A stretch of DNA of 64,000 nt, taken from positions 90,085 to 154,084 of the forward strand of contig JBAXUE010000001.1 in assembly GCA_037129835.1 (NCBI GenBank). Reading direction: 5' to 3'. The notes under the pieces are model-generated. The model saw nothing but the letters and a program-made list of their open reading frames with translations, was not told the DNA's origin and did not search any database. The position numbers and the translations under genes are program-made. The stretch is from a bacterium. GTDB lineage: Bacteria; Patescibacteriota; CPR2; UBA1875; CAIMLA01. Numbering within the stretch: position 1 is the stretch's first letter; each line of letters begins with the position of its first letter. Shown one piece after another: positions 8,023 through 46,886 of this stretch.

Positions 8023-8099
8023 GGTGGTCGTAGCTCAGCTGGTAGAGCTCCGGTTTGTGGTACCGGCGGTCGCGGGTTCGAGCCCCGTCGACCACCCCA
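8023..8099 (+). tRNA. tRNA-His (anticodon GUG) with genomically encoded G-1 and CCA
   Basis: Extra 5' G pairing with discriminator C (His identity element), acceptor GTGGTCG/CGACCAC, anticodon loop TTGTGGT. Confidence 0.75.
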
Positions 8100-16413: not shown

Positions 16414-16489
16414 CGGGGTGTAGCACAGTTGGTAGTGCGCGCGGTTTGGGACCGCGAGGTCGAAGGTTCGAGTCCTTTCACCCCGACCA
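16414..16489 (+). tRNA. tRNA-Pro (anticodon UGG), CCA encoded
   Basis: Acceptor CGGGGTG/CACCCCG, anticodon stem CGCGG/CCGCG, loop TTTGGGA, T-loop TTCGAGT. Confidence 0.75.
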
Positions 16490-24926: not shown

Positions 24927-25002
24927 TGGTGGGCCCGGCGCGACTCGAACGCGCGACCAGTTGCTTAAGAGGCAATTGCTCTACCAACTGAGCTACAGGC
25001 CC
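24927..25002 (-). tRNA. tRNA-Lys (anticodon CUU), CCA encoded
   Basis: Reverse complement GGGCCTGTAGCTCAGTTGGTAGAGCAATTGCCTCTTAAGCAACTGGTCGCGCGTTCGAGTCGCGCCGGGCCCACCA; loop CTCTTAA. Confidence 0.75.
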
Positions 25003-25058
25003 GCAAATAACTTTGAAATTATACTCGATTTAGCTATTAATTTCAATGTTGTTGATAA

Positions 25059-25134
25059 TGGTGCGCCCGGTTGGATTCGAACCAACGGCCAATAGCTTAG
25101 AAGGCTACTGCTCTATCCCCTGAGCTACGGGCGC
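25059..25134 (-). tRNA. tRNA-Arg (anticodon UCU), CCA encoded
   Basis: Reverse complement GCGCCCGTAGCTCAGGGGATAGAGCAGTAGCCTTCTAAGCTATTGGCCGTTGGTTCGAATCCAACCGGGCGCACCA. Confidence 0.75.
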
Positions 25135-29896: not shown

Positions 29897-32656
29897 GTGG
29901 GAGGGTCTATGAGTCCTGATAAAGTTGAAACCGGTGAATCTACCAAAGAAACTAACAAGGGGAAAAAGGCGGAGTGGGAAGTCGATACAATAAATTCTGC
30001 TCTAGAAACAGCGCTCAAAACAGGAGACGAGGAATTAATCAAAGCGGCCCGAGCTTCTCTTGAGGGGGCTCAGGACGGTAGGATGGATCGTCAAGACGAT
30101 TTTATCTCTCCAGAAGTAAAGACAACTATCAAGAGAGGAGGTTCATCTCTAGAGACGGTTGTTCCTTTTGCAGAAAATAAAGACGGTGAAACATTTACTA
30201 CGTTTGATGCTGCTGTAGATAAGCACAAAGGGGGGGAAGCGGTCAAGGAGGCTGCTACCAAACTTCAAGAGAAGAGAACATTGGGTACTCTAGAAGCAGA
30301 TGATGTTGATCTCAAGACGGTTTTGGATTTTCTTGCGGCCGCTAAAGCCGAGGAAGCGAAAGAAGTTGTATTACAAGCCGTAAAACAGGCTGAATATAAG
30401 GCTATTGCCAATACTTTTGAGATGTATGTTGCTGAAGGCGAAACAGTTAAAGATAAAGAAAACCTTCAGTATTTAGTTAATTATCTAAGTGATGGTTTAA
30501 ATGAGTCAGAGTTTTCCAAAGATCGTTTAGAGTCAGCAACAGTTTCTTTGAGTAAGTTGATTCAATCAGCCAGATCTGGAAAGTCTGTCGGTGTGGCTGG
30601 AAACCCCCTTGAAACCGAACATAATTCAGCAAAAGAATCGATTGCCGTACACGCGCAAGCTTTTTATGAAAAAATAAGTGAAAAGATGTCAACCGAAGAC
30701 AATAAGCGCGCAATTGATAATAACAATGATATGGAAGGGCTTATGCTGAAGCTTGAAGAGTGGAAATCTGAAGCAAGAGAAACTAAACTAGAAGCTGAAG
30801 CCAAGAGCGGAGAAGAGAAATTAGAAGAAATATCCAAGGCACAAGATGAGCTAAAAGCCATTGTTGCAGAACAAGGCAAAGCACTTTTAGAAGTTGAAAC
30901 TGCTTTGGCAATAATTGAAGGTAAATATGACGAGCAAGGCAAGGCACTCCAAGAGGCTGAAGCTGCCCTGGCAGCGCTAGAAGGTAAAAATAACGAACCG
31001 GCTGACGAAAAGGCACTAAATAATGGTGAGAATGTTCAAAAATTGGAAGGACAATCCGAAAAGTTTACTTTAGATAAAATACATAAATTTTTGGAAGACA
31101 ATTTAGACAAAGAAGATATTCAGGAGCTATATAAGAAACTCTACAGCATTGGCTATAATCGCGATGAAATAGTGGACAGTAATATTGAGAATTACTTTAG
31201 TGATAATGCGTCTATTCAGATGGAAAGTCTTGAGGCAAAGTTAATTTCAGCAAACTATACACCAGAAGAGATTAGCCGTGCCAAAGAAAAGTTACGAGTT
31301 GGCGGTATTGATATGGGTGAGCCTAATCCGACTCCGGTTGATGGTGGCGTAGAAACCGAGCAAAATTCTGCAGATCCTCTTGAGGCACCCATAAGTCAAG
31401 ATCAACAAGCAGGGGAACTTCTTGATGGAGACGCAGACGTTGTTGGCGAAGAAATAAGAGATTTGGAACAACCTGACGGTAACGCAGAAACTGAGCAACA
31501 TTCTGTGGAACCACTTGAGTCAAACATGAATCAAGACCAACGGGTTGAGGAACTTCTTGATGGAGAAACAGATGGCGTTGGTGAAGAAATAAGCGTTTTA
31601 GAACAACTTGGGCTTACGGAATTACCAGATTTCCAGGAGGTTAAAGATGCAAAAGAAGCATACCTAAAAGCTTTGATAACGAGGCAAAAATGGCGAGGAA
31701 GAACCAGTGCAGAGAATACACGTGAGCTAAGAGCAAATTATCTAGAGGTGTTTACTAATTTCTTGCAAAGAAATATTGGAGATGTTGCCCAAAATGAGCT
31801 CCAGAGCTTAACAGGACAACAGAGAGCTGAGAAGATTAGAGAAATATCACATACTTTGTCACAAGTTCTAGTTGAGGAAGTTTATAATCTATCGAATACT
31901 GAAAGCGAATTGTGCAATGAGGGCGCAGGCAACAAAATAGTAAATTTTGTTAGAAGACATCCGTTTTTGAGAATGGCAATTAGTGGTGCTTTAGTAGTAG
32001 GTAATGCTGGTCTGACCGCCGCTGCTCTTTCCAATCCAGCACTTTTTTGGGCGCTCCCAGTACTCTTAACTTCAAATGTCGCTTTGCAGTCTGCTTCTAT
32101 GGAGGGTGCTTTTGAAGGCATTGGAATTGGGTATAGCAAAAGAGATATCGCCCAGAAACGCTTTGCGGAGATCAAATCTCGCATAGCTGAATCTCGCTTA
32201 GGTCAATCTCGTCTAGGAAAAATATTTGGCGTAAAAGAAAAAGGATCTATAAGGGATATACCTGAAGATGAGCTAGAAAAGTTGACTTCGCCTCAGATAA
32301 ATAAACGCTTCGCAGCAATCCAATCCCATCTAGTGCGCACGGGTGAATCTATCGATAAAGCCGGTGCTAGAGAAAAGGAGCTCTTTAAACAACTTCAGAT
32401 TGCTATGGCCGAAGATATTCAGAAAAGTATCGAAGGACAGCTGAAACGCAACGAAGCGGTATCCGATGTTATAATACAAGAGCTTATTACGAAGCCATAT
32501 CGAGAAACTTTACGTGAGTTTGAGTTTGGGCATGAAAAATTAAGAAGAGCTTCCCTCAGAAGATGGGCTGGAACATTGAGTTCACCGGGCGCAATAGCGG
32601 CATTGATTTCTTGGAAGTATGAGCCAAAGGAACCAACCCCTGAAAGTAATAGATAA
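29897..32656 (+). CDS. large (919 aa) acidic coiled-coil protein with internal tandem repeats and C-terminal hydrophobic segments
   Basis: Two ~45-aa repeats (ETEQNSADPLEAPISQDQQAGELLDGDADVVGEEIRDLEQ / ETEQHSVEPLESNMNQDQRVEELLDGETDGVGEEISVLEQ); heptad-rich; no enzymatic motif. Confidence 0.5.
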   Translation: MGGSMSPDKVETGESTKETNKGKKAEWEVDTINSALETALKTGDEELIKAARASLEGAQDGRMDRQDDFISPEVKTTIKRGGSSLETVVPFAENKDGETFTTFDAAVDKHKGGEAVKEAATKLQEKRTLGTLEADDVDLKTVLDFLAAAKAEEAKEVVLQAVKQAEYKAIANTFEMYVAEGETVKDKENLQYLVNYLSDGLNESEFSKDRLESATVSLSKLIQSARSGKSVGVAGNPLETEHNSAKESIAVHAQAFYEKISEKMSTEDNKRAIDNNNDMEGLMLKLEEWKSEARETKLEAEAKSGEEKLEEISKAQDELKAIVAEQGKALLEVETALAIIEGKYDEQGKALQEAEAALAALEGKNNEPADEKALNNGENVQKLEGQSEKFTLDKIHKFLEDNLDKEDIQELYKKLYSIGYNRDEIVDSNIENYFSDNASIQMESLEAKLISANYTPEEISRAKEKLRVGGIDMGEPNPTPVDGGVETEQNSADPLEAPISQDQQAGELLDGDADVVGEEIRDLEQPDGNAETEQHSVEPLESNMNQDQRVEELLDGETDGVGEEISVLEQLGLTELPDFQEVKDAKEAYLKALITRQKWRGRTSAENTRELRANYLEVFTNFLQRNIGDVAQNELQSLTGQQRAEKIREISHTLSQVLVEEVYNLSNTESELCNEGAGNKIVNFVRRHPFLRMAISGALVVGNAGLTAAALSNPALFWALPVLLTSNVALQSASMEGAFEGIGIGYSKRDIAQKRFAEIKSRIAESRLGQSRLGKIFGVKEKGSIRDIPEDELEKLTSPQINKRFAAIQSHLVRTGESIDKAGAREKELFKQLQIAMAEDIQKSIEGQLKRNEAVSDVIIQELITKPYRETLREFEFGHEKLRRASLRRWAGTLSSPGAIAALISWKYEPKEPTPESNR
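31352..31621 (+). repeat. imperfect ~135-bp tandem duplication inside the 919-aa ORF
   Basis: DNA and protein repeat read directly. Confidence 0.6.
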
Positions 32657-32681
32657 TAAATAAACTAAATTGGAGGGAATT

Positions 32682-33014
32682 ATGCCATCAAATATTGAGA
32701 TAATACAGGATTTAAAATTAGCTGATCTCCCAGAAGAAGAACAAAATAAAGTTCTGGCTCAGATTGCAGAAACTATACAGAATAGAATAGCTATTCGCGT
32801 AGATGGAATATTAACCGATCAACAGAAGATTGAGTATGACGGGCTAATTACCGCTGGCAACCAAGATGAGTCGGACAAATATCTTGACGAAAAGATCCCT
32901 AATTTAAGCGATATGGTTGCCGAAGAGTACACCTCACTTCGTAAGGAGCTCATAGAAAGAAACGAAATTATACTTGCTGCAATAGATAAAGCGACTAAAA
33001 AACTAGATAGCTAG
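32682..33014 (+). CDS. hypothetical acidic protein (110 aa)
   Basis: Start at ATG 32682 with SD TGGAGGG. Confidence 0.4.
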   Translation: MPSNIEIIQDLKLADLPEEEQNKVLAQIAETIQNRIAIRVDGILTDQQKIEYDGLITAGNQDESDKYLDEKIPNLSDMVAEEYTSLRKELIERNEIILAAIDKATKKLDS

Positions 33015-33045: not shown

Positions 33046-33098
33046 GTTAACGTTGACAACTATTGTTAACAAGTGTTAACATAAAAAAAGAGGTTAAC
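33046..33098 (+). promoter_or_regulatory. promoter (TTGACA 33053-33058, -10 TAACAT) overlapped by four GTTAAC hexamers (33046, 33065, 33075, 33093); putative autoregulatory operator
   Basis: Read directly; last GTTAAC abuts the start codon, RBS AAAGAGG. Confidence 0.5.
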
Positions 33099-33350
33099 AT
33101 GACAAATAGTTATATTAGTACTACGCAGGCGGCAAAAATTCTTGGTATTAGTAGAATTGCAGTATTTAATCAAATAAAAAGTGGTAAAATACCAGCTCAA
33201 AAGGTGGGAAGAAACTATGTTATTAACCGTAAGGATATTGGCGGCATATTTCGGACTATTACCGCAAACGATAAGAGGAAGATCAATAAAGCGGTAGGCA
33301 AGGTACTTAAAGATTATTCATCAGCATTAAAGAAGCTGGGCAAAGAGTGA
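33099..33350 (+). CDS. excisionase/AlpA-family (MerR-superfamily) HTH DNA-binding protein; putative antitoxin
   Basis: ISTTQAAKILGISRIAVFNQIKSGKIPAQKVGRNYVI matches excisionase-family HTH (TIGR01764-like); stop overlaps Doc start (TGATG). Confidence 0.65.
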   Translation: MTNSYISTTQAAKILGISRIAVFNQIKSGKIPAQKVGRNYVINRKDIGGIFRTITANDKRKINKAVGKVLKDYSSALKKLGKE

Positions 33351-33766
33351 TGAAGGCGATAACCGTCGCAGAGGTGGAATATCTAGCTTATGAGCTCGCC
33401 GAGAAACAGATGGCGTGGAATGAGCCGATCCCAGATTTTGGTACTAGATATGTTGGCAAACTGGAAAGCTGTTTATCCGCGGGTTTTCAGACTTATGCGA
33501 AGAAAGAGTTATATCCAGGTTTATTGGACAAGGTCTCTATTATTTTTTACCTGATGATCAAAAATCATCCCTTTATGAACGGAAATAAACGTATCGCGAT
33601 AGCTACTATACTGACTTTTCTATATATAAATGAGAAATGGCTTGATGTCAGCAACGATGAGCTTTATCACTTTGCTATATGGGTGGCTGCCAGCAACCCG
33701 AGGCTTAAAGATGGTGTCGTCCTTGCTATCCATAGTTTTATCAAAAGCGGAATGATAGATTTATAG
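33350..33766 (+). CDS. doc: Doc/Fic-family toxin (death-on-curing kinase-like)
   Basis: HPFMNGNKRIAIA = Doc variant of the Fic motif HxFx(D/N)GNKR. Confidence 0.75.
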   Translation: MKAITVAEVEYLAYELAEKQMAWNEPIPDFGTRYVGKLESCLSAGFQTYAKKELYPGLLDKVSIIFYLMIKNHPFMNGNKRIAIATILTFLYINEKWLDVSNDELYHFAIWVAASNPRLKDGVVLAIHSFIKSGMIDL

Positions 33767-33848: not shown

Positions 33849-35126
33849 GTGGAAAGATTTAAAGACATTCCTGATTTGGCAAAGTGGAAGGCTCTGATAA
33901 TAGACTACGGTATCGAGCTAGCAGAAAAGAGTATATTTAATAACCTCCCAAATATTAACGACTACAAAATAAAATATAGAATTAAGCACCCTGAAGTAAA
34001 GGGCCTAAAAGTCACCGACAATTCCGGGGACATTTTTTTTATACCTGAAGAGATAATAATTTCAAAGAATGGAAAAAAATCTTTGGTAAAGCTGAATTAC
34101 CGGAAAAACTCACCTCTGGTATTAAGCATAGAGGATGGTAAAATCGTGCTCTTAGAAAAAGGTATAACGAAGGTATCAATAAGTATTGAATTAGTCAAAA
34201 AGAGAAAATATCAGTTTCACAAGATGCCGAAAGAACTTAATCCTTTAGAGCCGTCTCTTAAGGATTTTGTTCAAGTAATAGGATTAGACAGGATAGCTAT
34301 TATGGAATTTGAGGGTTGTTGGCATTGGAACACAGGAAATGCCTGTAAATTTTGTGATACAAATCCTAAAAGACCAGGAATAATAAGTGGAATGCCAAGC
34401 GTGAATACATTGTCAGATTATAATCTAAATGTCGATGATTGGTGGAATTCGGTAAAAGACAATTACTACCAGGGTATCGAATATACCTTTAAAAAGATTC
34501 TTCAAGAAGAAATAATATCACCCCATCAACACTTCCAGTTAATGTCCGGTAATTTGCCCAATACTAGGAAAATTTGGGAGATATCCGGAGAAATTGCGGA
34601 AGTTGTTAATAGGGTTAGGCCAATTAAACAATTTGATAGTTATCTAAATATCGCTGCCCCAAGAGAAGATCAGGAACAATGGCTAAGTAAGGCTAAGTAT
34701 GATTGGGGATTTAATAATATGGTTTTTAACCTGGAGGTTATCGGTAGGGATAGATTTAGAGAAGTTTGCCCTGGAAAATCTGCACTTATGGGATACGAAA
34801 ATACGATCAACTGTATGGAGATGTCTGTAAAAATTTTTGGCAGGGGCAATGTCAGAAGTAATTTTGTTCTAGGTGCACAGCCGGTCGATGAGCTACTAAG
34901 AGGCATTGAAGATTTGGCAGAAAAAGGAATTGTGGCGGATTATAGTATTTTTTCACCGAAAAAAGGAACTCCTTGGGAAGATAGAACATCTCCAGACATG
35001 GAAACAATAGTGAATTTCTCTCAAGAACTAGCGAAAATATATAAAAAGTATGGCTACAGCGGTATATATTGTAGCTTAAGCAGCCGCTCCAATATATTAC
35101 ATGAACTAATGGAATCTGAAGAGTAA
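33849..35126 (+). CDS. hypothetical protein with CX9CX2C motif (possible non-canonical [4Fe-4S]/radical-SAM-like enzyme)
   Basis: GCWHWNTGNACKFCDTNP; ...CxFCDT resembles QueE-type cluster loop, but overall family not recognised; GTG start. Confidence 0.4.
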   Translation: MERFKDIPDLAKWKALIIDYGIELAEKSIFNNLPNINDYKIKYRIKHPEVKGLKVTDNSGDIFFIPEEIIISKNGKKSLVKLNYRKNSPLVLSIEDGKIVLLEKGITKVSISIELVKKRKYQFHKMPKELNPLEPSLKDFVQVIGLDRIAIMEFEGCWHWNTGNACKFCDTNPKRPGIISGMPSVNTLSDYNLNVDDWWNSVKDNYYQGIEYTFKKILQEEIISPHQHFQLMSGNLPNTRKIWEISGEIAEVVNRVRPIKQFDSYLNIAAPREDQEQWLSKAKYDWGFNNMVFNLEVIGRDRFREVCPGKSALMGYENTINCMEMSVKIFGRGNVRSNFVLGAQPVDELLRGIEDLAEKGIVADYSIFSPKKGTPWEDRTSPDMETIVNFSQELAKIYKKYGYSGIYCSLSSRSNILHELMESEE

Positions 35127-35128
35127 AA

Positions 35129-36157
35129 ATGAAAGCATTAGAAACAAAATTAGCGGAATTGGTTATTTTTGATGATAGTCATCAAAGAGAAGAAGTATCC
35201 CTTATGACTTATAGCGTAGAGGAGCTATATGTCAGGATGAAGGATGGATGGACTTTTAAAAGACACCCAGAAGGTTTTATATTAAGAGCCCCAGAGGAGT
35301 GGTTTGTAGATCTTAGCGATCCTTATAAGGTTATTTACCATGCAAAAATAGAAGAGAATTTAGCATACTTTCTATTTATTAGAGATCTTATAAAAGACAA
35401 TAATTTTGAAAATTATCTACATACTATTCTTAAGAAGTATCATATTGGTAATTTTAGTTTTATTTTACTAAAGGGGCCTTCATTAAAAACAGAAGTTAGA
35501 TTGGCAGGGTCAGATAAAAGAATCAGTTTATTAAAAGATTACTCGTTTTTTGAATTTGAGCAAAATAATCTGTTTAATTGTTATGTAGAAAAGGCAAATA
35601 AAATTTTACGAAAAGATTTTAAGTTTAAATCCAAAAGAGTATCTATCTACGATCAACCAGTGGCGATAAGAGACTTCTTTTTTTCGCTTAAAGATCAGTT
35701 TTCACCATTAAACAATTTTCAAAAAGATACATTTAATAATGTTTTTTTTGAGGATTTATTTAAGGGCGTTCCAGAGGCAGATGTTTATCTGTTTATTCCT
35801 TATGGGTGTTTTAGATATATTTCTAGTTTTGTCGTAGCTCATAAAACTAGCAAAATTATGCTCTGGGAGCTACATACAGACAAACATTATTCTCAAACTA
35901 GTAAATACATGGCGAAGAATTTAAAGGGGAAAAATGTTTTGATCATAGATAATTCTTATACTGGCAAAACACTTACCATGATGGCAGACTTAGTAAAAAA
36001 GGAAGGCGGTAACCCTATTCGGTTAGCACTTTTCCCTAAAAGTGAATTGTCTATTCGAAATTCTGAGTATGTTTTGTTTGTTAATAAATTTTTTAGTTCG
36101 AAAGATATAAATTTGGTCGAGGATGATTGGTTTTTAGAAATGTATAAAAATTTGTAG
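35129..36157 (+). CDS. protein with C-terminal type-I phosphoribosyltransferase (PRPP-binding) domain
   Basis: VLIIDNSYTGKTLTMM = PRTase PRPP-binding loop; N-terminal ~230 aa unassigned. Confidence 0.55.
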   Translation: MKALETKLAELVIFDDSHQREEVSLMTYSVEELYVRMKDGWTFKRHPEGFILRAPEEWFVDLSDPYKVIYHAKIEENLAYFLFIRDLIKDNNFENYLHTILKKYHIGNFSFILLKGPSLKTEVRLAGSDKRISLLKDYSFFEFEQNNLFNCYVEKANKILRKDFKFKSKRVSIYDQPVAIRDFFFSLKDQFSPLNNFQKDTFNNVFFEDLFKGVPEADVYLFIPYGCFRYISSFVVAHKTSKIMLWELHTDKHYSQTSKYMAKNLKGKNVLIIDNSYTGKTLTMMADLVKKEGGNPIRLALFPKSELSIRNSEYVLFVNKFFSSKDINLVEDDWFLEMYKNL

Positions 36158-36165
36158 GAGGATTT

Positions 36166-36747
36166 ATGACAAAACCGGAAAAAAATATCGAAAAAGAAAT
36201 CAAAATAAAAGTCGAAAATATTGCCGAGATAGGTGAAATATTAAAACGGAAAAATGCCAAGTGTCTTGGTAAATCTTTTCAGAGGACAATTCGGTTTGAC
36301 ACTGAAGATTGTGATTTAGAAAAAAATAAAACATTTATTCGGGTCCGTTCTGGTTTTGGGAACGTAGTTACGTTGAAAAAGAAAACAAAAACAAATGAAA
36401 ATGTTTTTGAAAGAGTCGAGCTAGAAACAGAAGTGTCGGACATTGAAATTATGAGAAAAATTTTCCACAACCTGGGCTATACTCGTGAATTTATCATGGA
36501 AAAATATCGAACAAATTGGGAATATAATGATACTAAAATTTCCTTTGATGAAATGCCTTTTGGTTTGTATGTGGAAATTGAAGGCGAAGAAGCAGAAATA
36601 TTCGAAACTGCCGAAGAGCTTGGACTTGATTTGAGCAACAAAATCACAGTTACTTATTGGGATTTATTTGAAGATTACAAAAAAGAAACTGGAATCTCTG
36701 GCGAAAATATAGTTTTTTCAAAGGGGTACAAGTCTAAATCAAGCTAA
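36166..36747 (+). CDS. CYTH-domain (triphosphate tunnel metalloenzyme; CyaB/ThTPase-like) protein
   Basis: N-terminal EIEIKIKV (ExExK) hallmark and conserved acidic/basic pattern; RBS AGGAGG. Confidence 0.6.
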   Translation: MTKPEKNIEKEIKIKVENIAEIGEILKRKNAKCLGKSFQRTIRFDTEDCDLEKNKTFIRVRSGFGNVVTLKKKTKTNENVFERVELETEVSDIEIMRKIFHNLGYTREFIMEKYRTNWEYNDTKISFDEMPFGLYVEIEGEEAEIFETAEELGLDLSNKITVTYWDLFEDYKKETGISGENIVFSKGYKSKSS

Positions 36748-36849: not shown

Positions 36850-37524
36850 ATGAAAGACTTTGAGGTTGCAGAACGACTTTACAGCGTCAATGGGCCTGAC
36901 GGGTCAGGGAAGACTATTTTCGTTCGGTACTTGGCAGCCGAAATGGCTTCAATTGCCCCCACGATAGTAGTCAAGCCTTCACTGTTCTCAGAGTCATCGG
37001 CGTCTCGGAGTATCGGAGATCTCTTCGCCAAAGACGTAGAGGTAAAGAAGGACAGTAGGGTACGGAATACCTACTTCCTTGAGACTCTCAGCGTCAACTA
37101 CCGAGACAGAGTCATTCCGTTGCTGGAGCAGGGTTACTGTGTAATCCTGGATTCATCGGAGATCCGGGATGTAGCTTTTACAAAGGATATCTCGGATGAG
37201 TTGGCTCACTCAGATACACTTGAGTGGGTTCAAAGCGGAAAGCTGACTCATCGAACAGTCGCGAAGCATCAAGTATTTCTCTACTCGGAAGCCGAAGATC
37301 TCTTTGCCAATATCCTTGCAAGAGGAGAGTTTGGCTATGGAGATCCAAGGAGCTTGGAAGAGGCAGAACGTCGTCTCTTGTGCTATCAGGAAGCCTTCAA
37401 GCTTTTCCGCTTGATGGCTCCCGAAGAAGTCAACTGGCACTATCTGGAAAATCCTCGAGTACTTAATTTCGAGGAACAGCTTCGGCTACTGAGCCGACGA
37501 GTTATCGAAGGAGCAAGCTCATGA
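36850..37524 (+). CDS. dNMP/thymidylate-kinase-like P-loop kinase (GC-rich cassette)
   Basis: NGPDGSGKT Walker A, ILDSSEIRD ~ DRY-lid region of dTMP kinases. Confidence 0.5.
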   Translation: MKDFEVAERLYSVNGPDGSGKTIFVRYLAAEMASIAPTIVVKPSLFSESSASRSIGDLFAKDVEVKKDSRVRNTYFLETLSVNYRDRVIPLLEQGYCVILDSSEIRDVAFTKDISDELAHSDTLEWVQSGKLTHRTVAKHQVFLYSEAEDLFANILARGEFGYGDPRSLEEAERRLLCYQEAFKLFRLMAPEEVNWHYLENPRVLNFEEQLRLLSRRVIEGASS

Positions 37525-37994
37525 ACAAAGCATCCAAGTACGGTCTCAACACAATTAGAAATCAACTTGAGGCCGAGAAGGTTCGCTTGGTTGCCATACG
37601 CGAGAGCAAAGCGCTCGCGGCGGGGGACCAAGACAGCTGGCATGACGAGCAGTTCAAGACAGAGATGCAGGAAGAGACGAAGTCTCTAGATAGCATCGGT
37701 CATCTCGAACAGCTGCTCGATTCCCTAAAGGAGCATCAACCAGATGGGAATGATGTCGTTGACATCGGACACTATGTCACCCTGTCTTTCCCCGAAAAGG
37801 GGGAGAAGACCTTTTGGGTTGATGGGGTTGTAGTCTCTGGTCTTGCCCACGACACGGTTACTGTGGAGAGTCCTATCGGCAAAGTCATAATCGGCTCAAG
37901 AAGAGGTCAGACAGCCACATACGTGGTAGGCACAAGCAGTGTCCAACTCCAGGTTGTCGACATCTTCCTTCCGGAAGATCTTCCACCGTTGTAG
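37521..37994 (+). CDS. GreA/GreB C-terminal-domain protein (Rnk-like regulator of nucleoside diphosphate kinase)
   Basis: C-terminal FKBP-like segment HYVTLSFPEKGEKTFWVDG...SPIGKVIIGSRRGQTATYVV aligns with the GreA C-domain; short coiled-coil N-terminus; ATGA-coupled to kinase. Confidence 0.5.
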   Translation: MNKASKYGLNTIRNQLEAEKVRLVAIRESKALAAGDQDSWHDEQFKTEMQEETKSLDSIGHLEQLLDSLKEHQPDGNDVVDIGHYVTLSFPEKGEKTFWVDGVVVSGLAHDTVTVESPIGKVIIGSRRGQTATYVVGTSSVQLQVVDIFLPEDLPPL

Positions 37995-38064: not shown

Positions 38065-38577
38065 TTATTTTTGTTTAGCTAATTCAACTGCCTTTAAACA
38101 CGTTGATTTTAAGTCAGTAAAAAAAGGTACTTCGGGACAATCCTGGGAAAATCTTCTTTTTATATACCGATGGTTTGTAAAACCGTCTTCAATGCCTATA
38201 ACCAAGTTGGCTCCTGTGTTTTCATGTTTTACTTTCCATTCAGCGAGCTCGAATCTGGTAGTTTGAGCAAATGGTCTTTCGCAATAATGTTCTTTTTCGC
38301 TAGCAAGCCAGAAAATAATAGCACCTTCTCTTGCACATCTGTTTAAATATTCAGTTTCCCAGTCAACTTGTTCATTATACATTTCTTGGGTAAAGTCTTT
38401 TTGTCTGTCTAGAACTCTTCTAGGGGAAGCTAGGTAGATATTTGGGTCGATTTCGTGGATATACTCCATGGCGACTTCTTGCCACCTTTCAGAGCCTTTG
38501 ATTGGTCCAGCTAAAAAGATCATGGGACCTTCTACTTCTCTTTTTTCTGGTGGGATGATTATTCTATCTTTATTCAT
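38065..38577 (-). CDS. nucleoside 2-deoxyribosyltransferase / DNPH1(Rcl)-like N-glycosidase family protein
   Basis: MIFLAGPIKG (LAGP motif) and TTRFELAEW (T-x-FE catalytic Glu context) of PF05014 family. Confidence 0.55.
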   Translation of the reverse strand: MNKDRIIIPPEKREVEGPMIFLAGPIKGSERWQEVAMEYIHEIDPNIYLASPRRVLDRQKDFTQEMYNEQVDWETEYLNRCAREGAIIFWLASEKEHYCERPFAQTTRFELAEWKVKHENTGANLVIGIEDGFTNHRYIKRRFSQDCPEVPFFTDLKSTCLKAVELAKQK

Positions 38578-38649
38578 GCCCTGATTATATCAAATATTCT
38601 TTATTTGGCTATTATATTATTATTTTTATGTGCTAAAATAGCTCCTAAT

Positions 38650-40086
38650 ATGGAAAAAATGATAATCGAGATTATGCTTGATACCTTTGGAGAAACACCT
38701 AAAAGTATTAGCAGAAAAAAGATAGGACTTCGAAACGAGGTTTTTGAAGTCATTTTCGATAAACAAGAGGCAGTTATTATTAGAATTGGAAAAAATAGTA
38801 ATCAATTAGTTGGATCATCTAGGTATATCCCGTTATTTCATTCACTTGGTATAACAGTTCCAGTTATTCTTAAAGAAGACTATTCGTTAGAAAGCCATCC
38901 ATATCCATATCATATTCAAACAAAAATTGATGGTCAGGATCTAGAAAAGATCTTTAACACCCTGACTTTTTTAGAGCTAAAAAAGGTTGCGAAATTCGTT
39001 TCAGACGTCTTTACAAAGCTAGTCACATTACCAACCGACGGATGTTTTGGAATTGTGGACTACCAAGCCGTAGGGTCACATAGCAGTTGGAAAGACTTTA
39101 TACGCTCTTTGCTAAAAGAAATAGAAGAAAGTGAATCGATAAAGCACCATATAGATAAAATTTTGGTCGCCAAGACCTTTGAAATAATTCACAGCTATGA
39201 AGAATATTTTGACACTGTTAGTTCTGAGTTTTTTACTCATGATATTAGTTCAAAAAATATTATGATTTATAATGGGAAAGTTATGGGTCTGGTTGATCTG
39301 GATGTGATGTGTTTTGGGGACCCATTATTTTCATTAGGCTCAATCGTTGCTACTTGGCCGGATTCAAAAAGGGGAATGTACTATATTAATGAAATTTATA
39401 AAAATTTGCACCTGACTTTTGAAAAAATAAAAATTGTTGAAATGTATGCTATATTCCAACGATTATGGTGGCTTTCAGAAATCGGTAAAAAGTTTAACGA
39501 CAATACCGTCAAGGTAGTAGATCGAAATATAATATCCGCGGGTTCTAGTATTCTTGATATATTGATAAGTAAATACGAAGAGAAAAAATTTTTTGAATAT
39601 AAGATGAAAAATATTACCTATAATAAAGAATATCCAAAGATGTTTTTAAAGGAAAGGAAGAAAATATTATCTTTATTTGGGGAAAATGTTCAAGTTTTTC
39701 ATATTGGCAGCACGGCGATTCCTGAAATGTCAGGCAAGGGAATAATAGACATTTTGATAGTAGTCCCTGCGTTTAAGATGGCCGTTGTTTCAGAAGAATT
39801 GTTGGCTTCCGGACTACTTTTGCGCGAAAATGCAGGTTCGTCTGGCAGAATATTCTTTTCCGATAAACCACTCGAGGCTTCCAATGTTCGTTTTCACTAT
39901 CATTTAGTCAGAGAAAACACCCCAGATCATCTGAATCCTATTAAATTTCGAGATTATCTTATCGCACATCCAGATACTGCTGGTGAATATCAGGCTTTAA
40001 AAGAAACCCTAGCGCAAAATAGCGCGACCAGCCGAGAATATCTTGAGGGGAAGGCGGAGTTTATCCAATCTATTCTTAATAAATAG
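38650..40086 (+). CDS. fusion: APH/choline-kinase-like phosphotransferase (N) + GrpB/UPF0157 nucleotidyltransferase-fold domain (C)
   Basis: HDISSKNIMIY...GLVDLDVMCFGDPLFSLG (APH catalytic/Brenner + DxD motifs); C-terminal VFHIGSTAIPEMSGKGIIDILIV (GrpB). Start moved to internal ATG (MEKMIIE...) to leave a divergent promoter. Confidence 0.55.
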   Translation: MEKMIIEIMLDTFGETPKSISRKKIGLRNEVFEVIFDKQEAVIIRIGKNSNQLVGSSRYIPLFHSLGITVPVILKEDYSLESHPYPYHIQTKIDGQDLEKIFNTLTFLELKKVAKFVSDVFTKLVTLPTDGCFGIVDYQAVGSHSSWKDFIRSLLKEIEESESIKHHIDKILVAKTFEIIHSYEEYFDTVSSEFFTHDISSKNIMIYNGKVMGLVDLDVMCFGDPLFSLGSIVATWPDSKRGMYYINEIYKNLHLTFEKIKIVEMYAIFQRLWWLSEIGKKFNDNTVKVVDRNIISAGSSILDILISKYEEKKFFEYKMKNITYNKEYPKMFLKERKKILSLFGENVQVFHIGSTAIPEMSGKGIIDILIVVPAFKMAVVSEELLASGLLLRENAGSSGRIFFSDKPLEASNVRFHYHLVRENTPDHLNPIKFRDYLIAHPDTAGEYQALKETLAQNSATSREYLEGKAEFIQSILNK

Positions 40087-40119: not shown

Positions 40120-40773
40120 GTGAGGAAAGAATTTTCGAATAAATTTAAAAATGCGTACGCGGAATTGTATAAACTTCATCCTCAAGTAGGTGAGCAAAAC
40201 CCGCGTTTCCGTTATCTAAGAGTAGACTGGTTCTTCCCGAATCATATACACAATGTTCTCGAACAAGTGAAGGATTTGGGTCAGAAATATTTTACTAGCA
40301 TAGATTATGAGGTGTGTCTATATGCGGGATTGCTTCACGACTCTGGACTGGTATATAAACGAGAAACCGCAGAGGCGACTGGTCATGAAGAAAGAAGTAT
40401 TGAATACGCCGAAAAAGAACTAAAAAATTTGGGTTACAGCCAAGATTTTATTATTAAAGTTCTCGAGTGTATTAGAGCAACCAATGTAGGATATGATTCT
40501 AAATTGCCAGAAGCAATATTGGTAAGAAATGCAGATGCATACGCTCATCTTATTTCTATGCACTTTTTTGCGAAAGCGAATTTTGCAAATGATATTATTT
40601 CTTTTATCGATTGGTTTGAGAACAAAGTCGAAAGAACATATAAAAAGATATCTATCCCAGAGCTACGTTTAGAGATTGGGCCACTAATGAATTATTATCA
40701 GAAAATGCTAGAAAATTATCGGAAACAACAAGTCTCAGAAAAAGTCTATTTGAATAATATTACAGGCGAATAG
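40120..40773 (+). CDS. HD-domain phosphohydrolase
   Basis: H...AGLLHDSG...NADAYAHL metal-binding His/Asp pattern. Confidence 0.55.
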   Translation: MRKEFSNKFKNAYAELYKLHPQVGEQNPRFRYLRVDWFFPNHIHNVLEQVKDLGQKYFTSIDYEVCLYAGLLHDSGLVYKRETAEATGHEERSIEYAEKELKNLGYSQDFIIKVLECIRATNVGYDSKLPEAILVRNADAYAHLISMHFFAKANFANDIISFIDWFENKVERTYKKISIPELRLEIGPLMNYYQKMLENYRKQQVSEKVYLNNITGE

Positions 40774-41363
40774 TGAATACTTATAACAAAATCTATAGCG
40801 AAAATAAAAACGTTTTTGGTCTTAAGCCTACTGCCATACTAGAAACTGCGTTAAAGGTTGTGAGCAATAAGAGCATTGCTCTCGATATCGGCGCCGGGCA
40901 GGGGAGAGATACAATATTTCTAGCGAAATCGGGCTTTGCTGTAGATTCCATTGAAAAATCAGATGTGGCAATAAACTATTTGAAAAGTTTGAATAATAGT
41001 AATATATGTCCTATTCAAACTCGGATAGAAGACTTTGATATTGTTGAAGATAGATATGATCTAATCAACGCAATTAATGTACTTCAGTTTGTGGAAGATG
41101 AGAACATTCCTAATGTAACTACAAAAATAAAAGCTGGTTTAAAGAGCGGTGGAGTAGTGGTTATCGCTTCTTTTACAGAGGAAGACCCGTCTTTTTTAGA
41201 GCAGTCGTTTAAGAAATATTTTGCGAAAGGCGAACTCAAAAAATTATTTTCTGATTTCGAAATCATTTTTTATCGTGAAAAGCTTGTGGACGATAATCCG
41301 CACGGCGGCACGCCTTACCCCCATCAGCACGGAGCTGTAGAAGTGGTGGCTAGGAAAAGGTAA
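40773..41363 (+). CDS. class I SAM-dependent methyltransferase (TehB-like)
   Basis: Motif I ALDIGAGQGRD; GTG start overlapping upstream stop. Confidence 0.6.
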   Translation: MNTYNKIYSENKNVFGLKPTAILETALKVVSNKSIALDIGAGQGRDTIFLAKSGFAVDSIEKSDVAINYLKSLNNSNICPIQTRIEDFDIVEDRYDLINAINVLQFVEDENIPNVTTKIKAGLKSGGVVVIASFTEEDPSFLEQSFKKYFAKGELKKLFSDFEIIFYREKLVDDNPHGGTPYPHQHGAVEVVARKR

Positions 41364-41459: not shown

Positions 41460-42176
41460 ATGTCAAAAAAGCTTGATCATAGATTTTGGGCAAAATATTT
41501 TAAGGTTTACGATGTACTGAATATGGTAATTCCTTACCAGGAGTTATTGGGCAGTATTATTAACGAGTTGGATATTAAAAAAGGCGACCTTGTTCTCGAT
41601 GCGGGTTGCGGAACCGGTAACTTGGCGGTAAAGATGAAGACCAAGGGTGCAAAGGTTATTGGTATAGATAATTGTATAGAGGCACTTGATATTTATAAAG
41701 AAAAGGATAAACAGGCAGAGATTTTAGTCCATGATCTTACTATGCCACTACCGTTTCCAGATGGTTTTTTTGACAAAATCGCGTCAAACAATGTTCTATA
41801 TACAATTTCAAAAGCAAATAGACAAGCTGTCTATAAAGAGCTTAAGAGAGTCCTTAAGCCAGGAGGACTTTTAGTAGTAGCAAATATTCAAAAGGATTTT
41901 AAGCCTCTGAATATTTACAAAGATCACTTAAAGCAAGATTTAAGTGTTAATGGTTATTTCAGATTAATGATAAAAATAGTTAAAATGTCATTTCCAACAA
42001 TTAAAATGTTTTATTATAATTCAATAATAAAAAGTAATAACAAATCAGGTTTCTATAACTTCATTGAGAAAGGTGAAGAGGCGAAAGACTTAGAAGGTCA
42101 TGGTTTTAAAATATTATCCGAACTACCCGTTTATAGTCAACAAGCTTTCTTAACAACAAGTAAAAAAAATGTATAA
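41460..42176 (+). CDS. class I SAM-dependent methyltransferase
   Basis: Motif I VLDAGCGTGNL, post-I acidic, LKPGGLLVV motif. Confidence 0.65.
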   Translation: MSKKLDHRFWAKYFKVYDVLNMVIPYQELLGSIINELDIKKGDLVLDAGCGTGNLAVKMKTKGAKVIGIDNCIEALDIYKEKDKQAEILVHDLTMPLPFPDGFFDKIASNNVLYTISKANRQAVYKELKRVLKPGGLLVVANIQKDFKPLNIYKDHLKQDLSVNGYFRLMIKIVKMSFPTIKMFYYNSIIKSNNKSGFYNFIEKGEEAKDLEGHGFKILSELPVYSQQAFLTTSKKNV

Positions 42177-42873
42177 AAACTTTTCTGTGAAGATAGGAGA
42201 AGAGACTATAGATTTCGGGATTGCTGTTGGTAAGGAAGAGATCGAAGACTTTGTAAGGCTAAGAACATATATTTATAATAAAAATGATTATTATTCGGAG
42301 AAGAAGAAAATTGATGTTGACGAATATGATAATAAAAAAACAATATATATTGTGGCCCATTCAAGGAAGAAAGTTGTGGCAGGTCTAAGACTAATATTTG
42401 ATAAATATTTACCTACCGAGAAAGACTGTTTTAGCTTTAAGGAACCAGTAGAAATGACTACCATACCACGAAATAAAAGATTTGAAATTGGCAGACTGGT
42501 TGTAACGAATAGCGCCGGCAGGGTACCGCGAAATATTTTAATGCTTGGTCTTTTTAAAGTTGTCATGAAATATTCGATTGAAAATGGACTTATGGGAGGA
42601 TACGCTTTTATTAAACAAAAGCTTTATAAAAAATTAGTATTTATTAATGCACCATTCCATGTAATAAAGAATTCAAAGTTAATATATGAAAAAGAAACAT
42701 TAAGAAACTATTTCGGGGATCCTTTGAATCCCGTTATCCCTATTTATTTTCTTGTTTCTGAATTTAAGAAATATGAAAAGAAAATTTTTAGTAAATATTT
42801 ATTCAAAAGTGTTGATGATGTTTATATTTTGAGAAGCGTTACTAGCTGGAATATACTGAGGCGCTTTTTATGA
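42169..42873 (+). CDS. GNAT-fold N-acyltransferase (FeeM/OlsB/LuxI-like acyl-amino-acid or autoinducer synthase family)
   Basis: FEIGRLVV and hydrophobic acyl-pocket segments typical of Acetyltransf_5-type N-acyl synthases. Confidence 0.45.
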   Translation: MYKNFSVKIGEETIDFGIAVGKEEIEDFVRLRTYIYNKNDYYSEKKKIDVDEYDNKKTIYIVAHSRKKVVAGLRLIFDKYLPTEKDCFSFKEPVEMTTIPRNKRFEIGRLVVTNSAGRVPRNILMLGLFKVVMKYSIENGLMGGYAFIKQKLYKKLVFINAPFHVIKNSKLIYEKETLRNYFGDPLNPVIPIYFLVSEFKKYEKKIFSKYLFKSVDDVYILRSVTSWNILRRFL

Positions 42874-45113
42874 TGTTTAATTTTTCTTCTATATTACTAT
42901 TAATTATTAGCGCAGTTAATTTAGTTCTGGGTTTATTAATTATAGTTAGAAACAGGAAAAGCATTCAAAATATTTTATTTTCTATTATGCTTTTTGGTAT
43001 CACCTTTTGGTCACTTTCCTTAATCCTCTATAATTTAGGCTTGCCAGAAACTATATATATATGGGGACAATTAGCCTATCTTTTTTCTGCATTAACTATA
43101 AGTTTATTTTTACAGTTTACTTTATACTTTCAAACAAAATTAGTAAATAAATTTGTTCAATACCTTTCTATTTTTTTGTGTACTGTGTATTTAGTTATAG
43201 CAGTTATACCATTTTCAATTTTTTCAAGTATTACAATAGCAGATGGTTTAATCGAAACTAGCTTAAACTGGGGTTATTATTTACATTCTATTATGACATT
43301 TGTTCTTTTCGGATGGGCTTTGATAAACCTAGTAATAAAGTACAATAAATCAACAGGAATATATCGTTCTCAATTAGTATTAATTCTTGTGGGTGCAACA
43401 ATTTCAACAGTCATTGCCATTTTTTCGAATGTTATATTATTTTCGAGTACAGGACTGTATAACTGGCTAGGACCAACAGGCACAATTTTTTTAGTTGGGT
43501 GTATAACATATGCCATTGTTAAACATAGATTAATGGATATTAGAATGGTTGTTGCTCGTTCGGTAGCATATATCATTCTTATTGTTACTTTGGCTGGTCT
43601 ATATGCCGGTGCAGTGCTCGGAATGGAATTTATCCTTTTCCCAAAAGAATTGACATCTTTCAGCTTAACCCAAGGAGGCTTAAGAACTGTTGTCGCCGTA
43701 ATTATGGTATTCCTCTTCCAGCCATTAAAAAACTGGATTACCAAAGCAACAGATAAAATATTTTTCCGAGGTAGATATGACGCCGATCAGCTACTTTCTG
43801 AGCTTTCAAATACAATGAGCTCGACAATCGTTCTTGTGGAGCTACTTTACCGAGTTAGCGATCTGATTCAAAAGAATATTAAGTCTACAAGAGTTCTTAC
43901 GGCACTCGTTAAGGATGACACCAGAATGTATAATGTCCAGGCAAATGGCTATAAAGAGACTCCCGATGTAGATCCCAGAGACGTCTACCATCTGGCCAAG
44001 GATGGAATTATCATCAAAGATGATCTGGAAGACGGCTCAAAATCAAAAAAACTCTTAACTGAATATAATGCGACTATGGCTGTGCCACTAAAGACAGATA
44101 GTGAGGTCATCGGAGTGATTCTTCTAGGTGAGAAAAATTCAGGGGAGATGTACAACCAGCAAGATATGAAGGTGATGGAGATTATTGGTCCAGAGCTAGC
44201 AGTTGCAGTTGAGAACGCCAAATCATACGAAGAGATATCAAAGTTCAATGTCACTCTGCGCCAGGAAGTGAAGAGAGCGACTTATCGCTTGAAACAGAAG
44301 AACTCGGAGCTACAGGAGCTAGATAAGGCCAAGGACGAGTTTATCAGCATGGCATCTCATCAGCTGCGAACGCCTCTGACGGCCATTAAGGGCTATTTAT
44401 CGATGCTACTCGAGGGAGATGCTGGAGATATCAAAGTAAGTCAGTATGACTTCATTAACGAGGCATACAGCGGTGCAAATAGAATGGTAGGACTGATCAA
44501 TGATCTTCTTAACGTATCTCGCATGGAAACAGGTCGTTTTTTTCTGGAGCCGAAGGAAGTGGATATTGAAAGGATTGTTAACGAAGAGGTTAAACAATTA
44601 TCACAACAGGCTAGGACTAAGGGTCTTTATCTAAAGGTTGAGAACAAAGGCAAGGTGCCCCATATTTGGGCAGACGAAACTAAAATTCGCCAAGTGGTAA
44701 TGAATTTTATGGACAATGCTCTCTACTACACCTTGACCGGAGGAGTGACCGTGACGCTAAGACATGATAAGGTAAATCTATATTATGAAGTCCATGATAC
44801 TGGCATAGGTGTTCCTGCAGACCAAAAACGGCATCTTTTTGAAAAGTTTTTCAGGGCAGATAATGCTCGTACTACACGGCCAGACGGTACCGGGCTTGGT
44901 ATTTATCTTGCGAAGAGAGTCATAGAAGATCATGGTGGAGAAATTATTTTCGAATCGGAAGTGGGCAAGGGCTCTATGTTTGGCTTCAAGTTTCCGCTTA
45001 AGAAAAAAGTTGGACCAAAGCCGATAAGTGCTCCTGCGCCACGGACGGTACATACAGCCGAAACAATGCAGGCAGTACAGACAGAGATTGTTGAAAAAGC
45101 TGCAATAAAATAA
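42870..45113 (+). CDS. sensor histidine kinase: ~8 TM N-terminal domain + GAF + HisKA + HATPase_c
   Basis: H-box FISMASHQLRTPLTAI, N/G boxes NALYYT...DTGIGVP...GTGLGIYLAK. Confidence 0.85.
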   Translation: MMFNFSSILLLIISAVNLVLGLLIIVRNRKSIQNILFSIMLFGITFWSLSLILYNLGLPETIYIWGQLAYLFSALTISLFLQFTLYFQTKLVNKFVQYLSIFLCTVYLVIAVIPFSIFSSITIADGLIETSLNWGYYLHSIMTFVLFGWALINLVIKYNKSTGIYRSQLVLILVGATISTVIAIFSNVILFSSTGLYNWLGPTGTIFLVGCITYAIVKHRLMDIRMVVARSVAYIILIVTLAGLYAGAVLGMEFILFPKELTSFSLTQGGLRTVVAVIMVFLFQPLKNWITKATDKIFFRGRYDADQLLSELSNTMSSTIVLVELLYRVSDLIQKNIKSTRVLTALVKDDTRMYNVQANGYKETPDVDPRDVYHLAKDGIIIKDDLEDGSKSKKLLTEYNATMAVPLKTDSEVIGVILLGEKNSGEMYNQQDMKVMEIIGPELAVAVENAKSYEEISKFNVTLRQEVKRATYRLKQKNSELQELDKAKDEFISMASHQLRTPLTAIKGYLSMLLEGDAGDIKVSQYDFINEAYSGANRMVGLINDLLNVSRMETGRFFLEPKEVDIERIVNEEVKQLSQQARTKGLYLKVENKGKVPHIWADETKIRQVVMNFMDNALYYTLTGGVTVTLRHDKVNLYYEVHDTGIGVPADQKRHLFEKFFRADNARTTRPDGTGLGIYLAKRVIEDHGGEIIFESEVGKGSMFGFKFPLKKKVGPKPISAPAPRTVHTAETMQAVQTEIVEKAAIK

Positions 45114-46811: not shown

Positions 46812-46886
46812 TGGTAGTCCCAAGGGGAGTCGAACCCCTGTTACCAGGATGAAAACCTGGCGTCCTAACCACTAGACGATGGGACC
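46812..46886 (-). tRNA. tRNA-Glu (anticodon UUC), CCA encoded
   Basis: Reverse complement GGTCCCATCGTCTAGTGGTTAGGACGCCAGGTTTTCATCCTGGTAACAGGGGTTCGACTCCCCTTGGGACTACCA. Confidence 0.75.

Follow-up and report, generated by a model that had tools for sequence, protein, structure and literature searches.

A candidate nucleotide-modifying gene cassette built around a variant radical-SAM protein in a Patescibacteriota contig

The DNA under study is a stretch of 64,000 nucleotides from a bacterium of the Patescibacteriota (GenBank assembly GCA_037129835.1, contig JBAXUE010000001.1, positions 90,085 to 154,084), and this whole stretch is referred to as the window. Three consecutive forward-strand genes at 33849-36747 are proposed, at roughly even odds (a probability of about 0.5), to form the heart of a conserved cassette, so far uncharacterised, that modifies nucleotides and probably takes part in conflict with viruses or mobile elements. 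The narrower claim, that these genes constitute a three-enzyme cassette modifying nucleotides, is considered likely. The first gene encodes a variant radical S-adenosylmethionine (SAM) protein (33849-35126; 425 aa, GTG start), the second a protein resembling phosphoribosyltransferases (PRTases) and termed PRT-like here (35129-36157; 342 aa), and the third a CYTH protein (36166-36747; 193 aa), with intergenic gaps of 2 nt and 8 nt, respectively. All three open reading frames (ORFs) are real and lie where a preliminary description, made from the sequence alone, had placed them. An NCBI metagenome-assembled genome (MAG) contains three identical proteins in succession (MEI6266399/400/401), which the Prokaryotic Genome Annotation Pipeline (PGAP) calls "radical SAM protein", "phosphoribosyltransferase" and "class IV adenylate cyclase". 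The last of these names is probably misleading.

The major data for the cassette were obtained from 75 collected loci, whose six-frame ORFs were searched with profiles. The loci are phylogenetically non-independent, and the counts given here overstate the number of independent events. There were 54 distinct radical-SAM loci, 47 of which had at least 400 nt of sequence downstream, and the gene directly downstream encoded a PRTase-fold protein in 45 of the 47 (PRT-like in 40, the PRTase-CE family in 5). The CYTH position could be judged in 31 PRT-like loci with sufficient room, and CYTH came next after PRT-like in 27. The four loci with another gene at the third position carried MazG (L017), NUDIX (L018 and L067) or a dTMP-kinase-like P-loop protein (L006). 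CYTH is also replaced as the cassette hydrolase by HD in a sister branch of the radical-SAM family (branch 2), and GTP cyclohydrolase II was counted likewise in one locus of that branch (L074). The trio is thus a genuine unit with near-obligate gene linkage, and polyphosphate hydrolases are interchangeable at its third position. The co-occurrence analysis proposed in the preliminary description was borne out by these counts, and its suggestion that the three proteins act together on nucleotides or polyphosphates was strengthened by the replacement of CYTH with MazG, NUDIX or HD.

The recurrent neighbours fit the same theme, a chemistry of free nucleotides and polyphosphates centred on a radical-SAM enzyme. 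The preliminary description had not taken up these neighbours, the GreA-like gene or the defence and CRISPR setting of the sister branch. Cytidylate- or thymidylate-kinase-like genes recur near the cassette, and nucleoside monophosphate (NMP) kinase-like genes adjoin it in L006, L017, L037 and L002. Homologues of nucleoside 2-deoxyribosyltransferase (NDT-like) lie beside it in 6 of 26 loci and, in L036 and L063, between the radical-SAM and PRT-like genes. Fusions of the radical-SAM protein to NUDIX were found within the family (P0056 and P0057). The window belongs to branch 1, which occurs mainly in Patescibacteria and in small-genome, Firmicute-like gut organisms.

Copies of unusual make-up were also observed. 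In the metagenomic locus L031 (238-3650), the radical-SAM gene stands alone, without PRT-like or CYTH; an ORF for an acidic coiled-coil protein and a gene for a terminase large subunit (PF17289) come next, an arrangement suggestive of a phage or prophage copy. In L055 (6180-7642), PRT-like precedes a piece of the radical-SAM protein (197 aa) from which the Cys motif is missing; this copy is decayed or rearranged. L059 (26% GC) gave a match of 26% identity but is a degraded remnant, as translation under genetic codes 11, 4 or 25 yielded no coherent ORFs.

The 425-aa protein is assigned, by family membership and predicted fold, as a radical-SAM enzyme whose cluster loop is extended. It matched the NCBIfam family NF045502 ("variant_rSAM") nearly end to end (170.1 bits against a cutoff of 125; E 6e-50), with weaker partial matches to the MSMEG_0568 and LipS2 radical-SAM families. 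No Pfam match was obtained for it, PF04055 included, while some of its homologues (at least 177 in number) do match PF04055. NF045502 carries a generic name only, without an assigned function. The presumed [4Fe-4S]/SAM site comprises C157, C166 and C169 in the arrangement C-X8-C-X2-C, found within GCWHWNTGNACKFCDT, the codons of the motif itself (GCWHWNTGNACKFCD) lying at 34317-34355 (+). The preliminary description had reported three Cys about 150 aa into the protein, ending in CKFCDT, and this was correct; its spacing of CX9CX2C has to be revised to CX8CX2C. In an alignment of 34 sequences, reaching down to 35% identity, C157, C166, F168, C169 and D170 were invariant, as were C307 (within a CPGK motif) and many basic residues. 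Of the 144 family proteins retrieved, 143 have the pattern G-C-x8-C-x2-C-D. Since the motif is invariant in the alignment and retained in nearly all of the wider family, it is not a chance occurrence. F168 occupies the usual aromatic position preceding the last Cys of a radical-SAM motif, and the canonical CX3CX2C is present in variant form. CX8CX2C variants are listed as uncharacterised in RadicalSAM.org, where megaclusters 4-6-x are available for comparison (PMC9477430).

The idea of a radical-SAM enzyme was further supported by an AlphaFold2 (AF2) model built on the 34-homologue alignment, which had a predicted local distance difference test score (pLDDT) of 93.5 and a predicted template-modelling score (pTM) of 0.92. 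The 34 best structural matches of this model in the PDB were all radical-SAM enzymes (34/34, probability 1.0), with LipA (5exi) at the top (E 1.6e-6). These matches, which include lipoyl synthase, HemN, biotin synthase (BioB), NosL, NifB and Elp3, cover the C-terminal ~280 residues. The model consists of a (beta/alpha)6 radical-SAM core preceded by a beta-rich N-terminal domain of about 140 aa. No structural match was found for the latter, in which K14, K42 and K81 are invariant. Candidates for the SAM-binding motifs, chosen by position only, are M232-S-G234-N after the strand at 228-232, N294/E296 at the strand at 290-292, and R336-S-N-F-V-L-G at the strand at 335-341.

The PRT-like protein shows its relationship to PRTases only in its C-terminal part, where the preliminary description had seen a phosphoribosyl pyrophosphate (PRPP)-binding loop as the sole recognisable feature. 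PF00156 matched residues 260-302 only, at 19.6 bits (cutoff 26.3), and its matches in 10 of 21 PRT-like members were all sub-threshold. A sequence search of the PDB with either this or the radical-SAM protein returned only PRPP loop matches (purine PRT 1vdm). The AF2 model (pLDDT 89.9) matched PDB structures in Foldseek by its C-terminal part only, the matches being HGXPRT 5bqo (E 1.1e-4) and purine PRT 1vdm with a probability of 1.0, and this part is predicted to adopt the type I PRTase fold. The structural checks recommended in the preliminary description thus favoured a radical-SAM and a PRTase fold, and neither of the outcomes named there as refuting was observed, the Cys residues and the PRTase loop both being conserved. 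The N-terminal ~200 residues form an orphan domain with no match in the PDB or in viral structure libraries. An OAS1_C/nucleotidyltransferase identity was considered for this domain on account of three weak Pfam matches; these are spurious because they align onto the PRTase region at ~13 bits. A viral fold search of BFVD with the PRT-like protein returned generic PRTases only, none at E<=0.001.

The loop itself, VLIIDNSYTGKTLTMM, spans residues 270-285. Its phosphate-binding portion (residues 270-281, VLIIDNSYTGKT; PRPP/5-phosphate type) is encoded at 35936-35971 (+) and is conserved in 114 full-length homologues, D274 being present in all 114, Y277 in 106, [S/T] at position 278, G279 in 104 and T281 in 108. 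Other near-invariant residues are H249 (114/114), E247, K304 and D61. The ligand of the loop is probably a phosphate or phosphoribosyl compound. In a profile search run exhaustively over 1.84e9 representative proteins, 137 PRT-like representatives were recovered, almost all of 340-370 aa; at E<=1e-3 these included neither another architecture nor a canonical PRTase. It was concluded that PRT-like is a closed, family-specific PRTase-fold protein, since its relatives are so few and include no canonical PRTase.

The 193-aa protein was assigned from its profile match and conserved residues as a bona fide CYTH (triphosphate-tunnel) protein, in agreement with the earlier reading of its ExExK start. 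PF01928 matched at 59.6 bits (cutoff 23.2; E 4.5e-16), and the ExExK motif reads E9-K-E11-I-K13 (nt 36190-36204). Among 28 orthologues, the tunnel residues R43, R59, K71, E112, D128 and E137 were conserved, and K13 was present in 27. The class IV adenylate cyclase equivalog TIGR00318 (cyaB) gave 52.4 bits, below its cutoff of 57.95. The protein therefore shares PF01928, the ExExK motif and the tunnel Arg, Lys and Glu residues with CYTH enzymes such as CyaB, ThTPase and the bacterial PPPases, and differs from CyaB in falling below the equivalog cutoff.

The strongest functional hint came from branch 2. It comprises about 35 further NF045502 members, including some from Nitrospina and Riflebacteria MAGs, which are ~38% identical to the window radical-SAM protein and pass the family cutoff of 125 (145 and 157 bits). 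Their downstream partner is PRTase-CE (PF24390; 650-715 aa), with a canonical hhFhDDFhNSG loop (..FIDDFxNSG) near residue 130. No homology between PRTase-CE and the PRT-like family was detectable, and the PRTase partner is replaced non-orthologously. An HD phosphohydrolase follows in 3 of 4 further branch-2 loci. In the fourth (L074, 7270-12941), GTP cyclohydrolase II lies between the radical-SAM gene and a short PRTase-CE gene (321 aa), and genes for thymidine kinase, a HAD phosphatase and an archaeal-type SAM synthetase are found divergently upstream; these genes suggest, tentatively, that the substrate is a guanine nucleotide and that SAM is supplied locally. The branch-2 cassette resembles the window trio in its radical-SAM family, gene order and three-part logic, and differs in its unrelated PRTase partner, in having HD instead of CYTH, and in its explicitly defence-type context.

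This context was evident at several loci. In L071 (639-14843), a complete-looking type III CRISPR-Cas operon comprises a Cas10/Cmr2-like gene, three RAMP genes, CHP04423, a Cas_APE2256 CARF gene and Cas6, and the radical-SAM gene, accompanied by a 659-aa PRTase-CE, starts 7 nt after the CARF gene; no CRISPR array was present within the 17 kb examined. In L072, the radical-SAM gene is near RtcR (CARF), an extracytoplasmic function (ECF) sigma factor and another Gre homologue. The cassette is near Cas1 in L075 and follows nSTAND and MazE/PIN genes in the P0307 locus. No type III cas operon or CARF placement was seen for branch 1 or the window in the loci examined.

Conflict-type neighbours were found for branch 1 in other forms. 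In one gut lineage (L046, 4358-6882; also L050-L053, L058 and L060), a viperin-family radical-SAM gene and a gene for a 282-aa CYTH protein with an insertion lie upstream of a LysR gene and the trio. The viperin-family protein matched the PADLOC model for prokaryotic viperins (pVip) at 8e-44 and NF038283 at 146 bits, below the cutoff of 180. A MoaA-like radical-SAM gene and a CYTH gene occupy the same upstream position in L002 (5264-6735). CYTH thus pairs with three radical-SAM families, two of which have relatives acting on nucleoside triphosphates (NTPs). In L067 (8454-19293), the radical-SAM and PRT-like genes and an opposite-strand NUDIX gene come just after two tRNA genes, and PcfK, PcfJ, KilA-N and PAPS-reductase/DUF4007 genes follow; the whole looks like cargo of an integrative conjugative element (ICE). 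In the window itself, a toxin-antitoxin-like pair lies directly upstream of the trio, consisting of a helix-turn-helix (HTH_17)/excisionase-type DNA-binding gene (33063-33350, +) and a Fic/Doc "death-on-curing" toxin gene (33347-33766, +) that it overlaps by 4 nt. The toxin matched TIGR01550 at 46.7 (cutoff 38.65) and PADLOC PDC-S23 at E 1e-18. The CRISPR, CARF, Cas1, nSTAND, MazE/PIN, viperin-like, ICE and Doc/HTH neighbours were counted in favour of a conflict role.

The closest known parallel is Ophion, a validated anti-jumbo-phage defence system composed of the radical-SAM protein OpnA, the PHP protein OpnB and the PRTase OpnC (bioRxiv 10.1101/2025.09.30.679545). Ophion defence needs both the radical-SAM protein and the PRTase, and its authors propose that transcription-halting nucleotides are involved (same preprint). 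Like the window trio, Ophion combines a radical-SAM protein, a ~350-aa PRTase-fold protein with a PRPP loop in its C-terminal half, and a phosphoesterase (metal-dependent in Ophion). It differs in that OphA is viperin-related with a canonical CX3CX2C motif, whereas the window protein has CX8CX2C; in that its phosphoesterase is PHP, while the trio has CYTH and no PHP gene; and in its occurrence in Gammaproteobacteria. OphA and OphC, taken from the preprint supplement, were compared with the window family profiles (hmmsearch --max and hhalign), and no homology was found; membership of OphC in PRTase-CE was likewise ruled out. Ophion and the cassette therefore share a logic and not a family. By these sequence comparisons, three unrelated PRTase-fold families each pair with a radical-SAM enzyme and a phosphoesterase.

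The pVips, which are radical-SAM enzymes making antiviral 3'-deoxy-3',4'-didehydro-NTPs (ddhNTPs) from NTPs and are often found beside NMP kinases, offer a second comparison. The likeness lies in the viperin-like radical-SAM and CYTH genes directly upstream of the trio in the gut lineage. The window protein differs from pVips in its Cys spacing, its extra N-terminal domain and its obligate PRTase-fold partner, and neither it nor its L002 orthologue was matched by the PADLOC pVip or NCBIfam viperin models. With type I PRTases (HGXPRT, purine PRT 1vdm and OPRT), the PRT-like protein shares the C-terminal fold and the hhhhD-x-x-x-[ST]-G-x-T phosphate loop, and it differs in its sub-threshold PF00156 score, the missing second acidic residue and the additional orphan N-domain of ~200 aa. 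Its match to the PADLOC model of the defence PRTase ShosT was weak (E 0.005). No description of the trio, or of the cassette of radical-SAM, PRTase-CE and HD genes, was found in the literature searched.

A mechanism may be outlined from these assignments. The PRT-like protein would bind a 5-phosphoribosyl compound (PRPP or an NMP) through D274 and the [S/T]-G-x-T loop and would build or present an unusual ribotide. The radical-SAM enzyme, with a [4Fe-4S] cluster on C157, C166 and C169, would cleave SAM, and the resulting 5'-deoxyadenosyl radical would alter the ribose or the base, with the invariant C307 of the CPGK motif as the candidate H-atom donor. CYTH would trim a tri- or diphosphate, either feeding an NMP-level substrate into the pathway (NTP to NMP and pyrophosphate) or limiting or detoxifying an NTP-level product; MazG, NUDIX, HD or GTP cyclohydrolase II would fill its place in other lineages. 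The NMP-kinase-like and NDT-like neighbours may adjust the phosphorylation state and exchange the base. The cassette as a whole would produce or process a nucleotide analogue directed against viruses or mobile elements, in analogy to viperins and Ophion without belonging to either.

A more specific version can be put forward only tentatively and is thought rather unlikely in its full form. Here an undescribed radical-SAM reaction on a PRPP- or NTP-derived ribotide would yield a toxic or chain-terminating anti-phage analogue, the hydrolase and a GreA homologue would shield the polymerases of the host, and the sister branch would operate under type III CRISPR/CARF control. In Patescibacteria, GreA would free the host RNA polymerase of terminated 3' ends by excision, while phage polymerases would not be rescued in this way. 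Of 26 loci, 11 carry a Gre-like gene within 5 kb of the cassette, its side and strand varying, and such a gene also occurs in the branch-2 locus L072. The GreA/Rnk-like neighbour was seen in L001, L006, L007, L011, L013, L014, L016, L018, L023-25, L029, L069 and L072, so that the linkage spans deeply diverged Patescibacteria. The coiled-coil tip motif [DST]WHDNxx[FYW] of these proteins is conserved and resembles the acidic tip of E. coli GreA (D41/E44).

Several observations weigh against the proposed role in nucleotide modification and conflict. Position 275 of the PRT-like loop is K, N, S, R or V among the 114 homologues, and the canonical second acidic residue is absent; the protein may therefore bind its ligand only, since catalytic type I PRTases carry this residue. 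In gut-lineage CYTH orthologues, the motif reads D-I-Q-I-K or Q-K-Q-V-K (e.g., L046, 9226-9792; L002, 9223-9780), and these orthologues may bind rather than hydrolyse a ligand because Gln replaces the second metal-binding Glu of ExExK. The links to CRISPR, RtcR and Cas1 amount to one locus each. The clear defence context belongs to branch 2, which is only ~38% identical and has another PRTase partner, and to a few branch-1 lineages, and it may not transfer to the branch of the window. Most loci from Patescibacteria, that of the window included, lie among housekeeping or miscellaneous genes, and the wider surroundings of the trio are mixed, without an obvious defence island. PADLOC gave nothing for the window radical-SAM and PRT-like proteins beyond the ShosT match, and a scan of IMG/VR viral contigs with the family alignment returned no family members.

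These points lead to the chief alternative, in which the cassette has no conflict role and serves as a housekeeping pathway of reduced-genome bacteria, salvaging or making an ordinary but hard-to-make nucleotide or cofactor precursor. PRT-like would join a base to PRPP, the radical-SAM enzyme would perform a radical step, and CYTH would trim phosphates. Besides the absence of an obvious defence island, this is favoured by branch-1 loci lying beside ribosomal, translation and tRNA-modification genes, by a GreA homologue that is stably linked to the cassette and whose tip motif is intact, by the NDT-like, NMP-kinase and NUDIX neighbours, which are also classic salvage enzymes, and by the thymidine kinase, HAD phosphatase and SAM synthetase flanking L074. 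It accounts poorly for the patchy distribution (137 PRT-like representatives among 1.84e9 proteins), for accessory genes that are modular and swappable, with PRTase and hydrolase both replaced non-orthologously, and for the CRISPR, CARF, Cas1, STAND, toxin-antitoxin, viperin and ICE neighbours. Moreover, searches upstream of the cassette, at E<=1 in the window and in a further nine loci of gut origin, returned no riboswitch or other cis-regulatory, metabolite-sensing RNA. The housekeeping pathway is accordingly regarded as possible but somewhat doubtful. A signalling module, with CYTH as a class IV nucleotide cyclase or with the cassette making or degrading a second messenger read by CARF-type sensors (with the radical-SAM and PRT-like proteins modifying that messenger), was judged improbable. 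The PGAP name of CYTH, its 52.4-bit match to TIGR00318, and the position of branch-2 radical-SAM genes directly after a CARF gene in the type III CRISPR locus and near RtcR are in line with such a module. However, the cyaB score is below its cutoff, the MazG, NUDIX and HD hydrolases that replace CYTH are not cyclases, no CARF, SAVED or other sensor genes were found in branch-1 loci, and most bacterial CYTH proteins are triphosphatases. The preliminary description had offered a triphosphate-bearing messenger as an alternative product, which is conceivable but speculative.

The beta-rich N-terminal domain of the radical-SAM protein, with its invariant K14, K42 and K81, raises the question of an RNA substrate. 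The enzyme might modify or repair tRNA, rRNA or mRNA, with this domain binding the RNA, while its neighbours process RNA ends or released nucleotides, and many radical-SAM enzymes do modify RNA; GreA (transcription), RtcR (an RNA-repair regulator) and TrmD among the neighbours would fit. This proposal was considered slightly less probable again than signalling, as the recurrent partners (PRTase fold, CYTH, NUDIX, MazG, HD, NMP kinases and NDT-like proteins) all act on free nucleotides, no RNA-binding domain family was detected in Pfam or NCBIfam searches, and no RNA-modifying radical-SAM family rose above noise in NCBIfam. The preliminary description had itself leaned towards an unusual (deaza)purine-like ribonucleotide, likening the Cys loop to that of QueE. 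A QueE-like enzyme and a PRTase making a 7-deazapurine ribonucleotide, after the pattern of toyocamycin or queuosine, would be consistent with the extended Cys spacing known from some QueE enzymes, with the resemblance of a radical-SAM and PRTase pair to ToyC/ToyH, and with the GTP cyclohydrolase II gene of one branch-2 locus. This part of the description did not hold, and the deazapurine pathway is essentially excluded: QueE, QueC, QueD and FolE (GTP cyclohydrolase I) are absent from the ~54 loci examined, the NCBIfam matches are to NF045502 and weakly to MSMEG_0568 and LipS2 but never to QueE, and the structural neighbours are LipA, HemN, BioB and NosL, with QueE absent from the top 50.

If the favoured reading of a nucleotide-modifying conflict cassette is correct, and an analogue is indeed made or processed, the trio would add to viperin and Ophion a third way in which radical-SAM chemistry leads to antiviral nucleotides, of independent evolutionary origin. 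In the stricter case of an anti-phage analogue, this antiviral pathway would be one of few defence systems with a wide distribution in the candidate phyla radiation. New chemistry would also be involved, given the CX8CX2C cluster loop, the invariant CPGK cysteine and the obligate PRTase-fold partner. A metabolic role would instead mean that reduced genomes possess a salvage or biosynthetic step not previously known. The cassette would also offer a first entry point to the function of genes that are conserved together in Patescibacteria, a group in which defence and nucleotide economy are little understood, and it is an example of component modularity, with three PRTase-fold families and CYTH, MazG, NUDIX, HD or PHP hydrolases swapped around a radical-SAM enzyme.

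The trio is followed in the window by further genes of possible relevance. A 224-aa P-loop protein (36850-37524, +), weakly dTMP-kinase-like (PF02223, E 8e-4, below cutoff), is probably an accessory nucleotide kinase; the protein itself was not found in other loci of the cassette set. Its gene overlaps by 4 nt that of the GreA/Rnk-like transcript-cleavage-factor homologue (37521-37994, +; 157 aa; PF01272, E 1.2e-8). The NDT-like protein (38065-38577, - strand; 170 aa), which scored 29.9 bits against a PF15891 cutoff of 30 (E 7e-7), is possibly a nucleotide N-glycosidase or transferase. Pfam matches identified a 493-aa fusion of APH and GrpB (38605-40086, +), an HD phosphohydrolase (40120-40773, +) and a TehB-like methyltransferase (40773-41363, +), which are possible looser accessories of the cassette. 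Genes for an APH-like kinase, a GrpB nucleotidyltransferase-fold protein, HD and a TehB-like methyltransferase recur in distant lineages (L069, 3085-16066; L065, 4769-6009), and the window methyltransferase is 37% identical to that of L069. The relation to branch-2 HD proteins is weak for the window HD (E 2e-4) and clear for that of the gut branch-1 locus L065 (E 1e-22).

The remainder of the window contributed minor observations. A scan for promoters and terminators was uninformative, as the counts did not exceed those in shuffled sequences, and no Rfam family other than tRNA reached its gathering threshold in the window. Upstream of the HTH/Doc pair lie a gene for a highly acidic, repeat-rich protein of 919 aa with hydrophobic C-terminal segments and no Pfam match (29897-32656, +) and, after it, a gene for a DUF5663 protein (32670-33014, +). 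At 42169-45113 (+), a FeeM/autoinducer-synthase-like GNAT gene (234 aa) overlaps by 4 nt a gene for a 7TM-GAF histidine kinase (747 aa), and the two possibly form an acyl-signal synthase/sensor pair. Seven tRNA genes (Gly-TCC, Arg-TCG, His-GTG, Pro-TGG, Lys-CTT, Arg-TCT and Glu-TTC) are located in 7536-8099, 16414-16489, 24927-25134 and 46812-46886.

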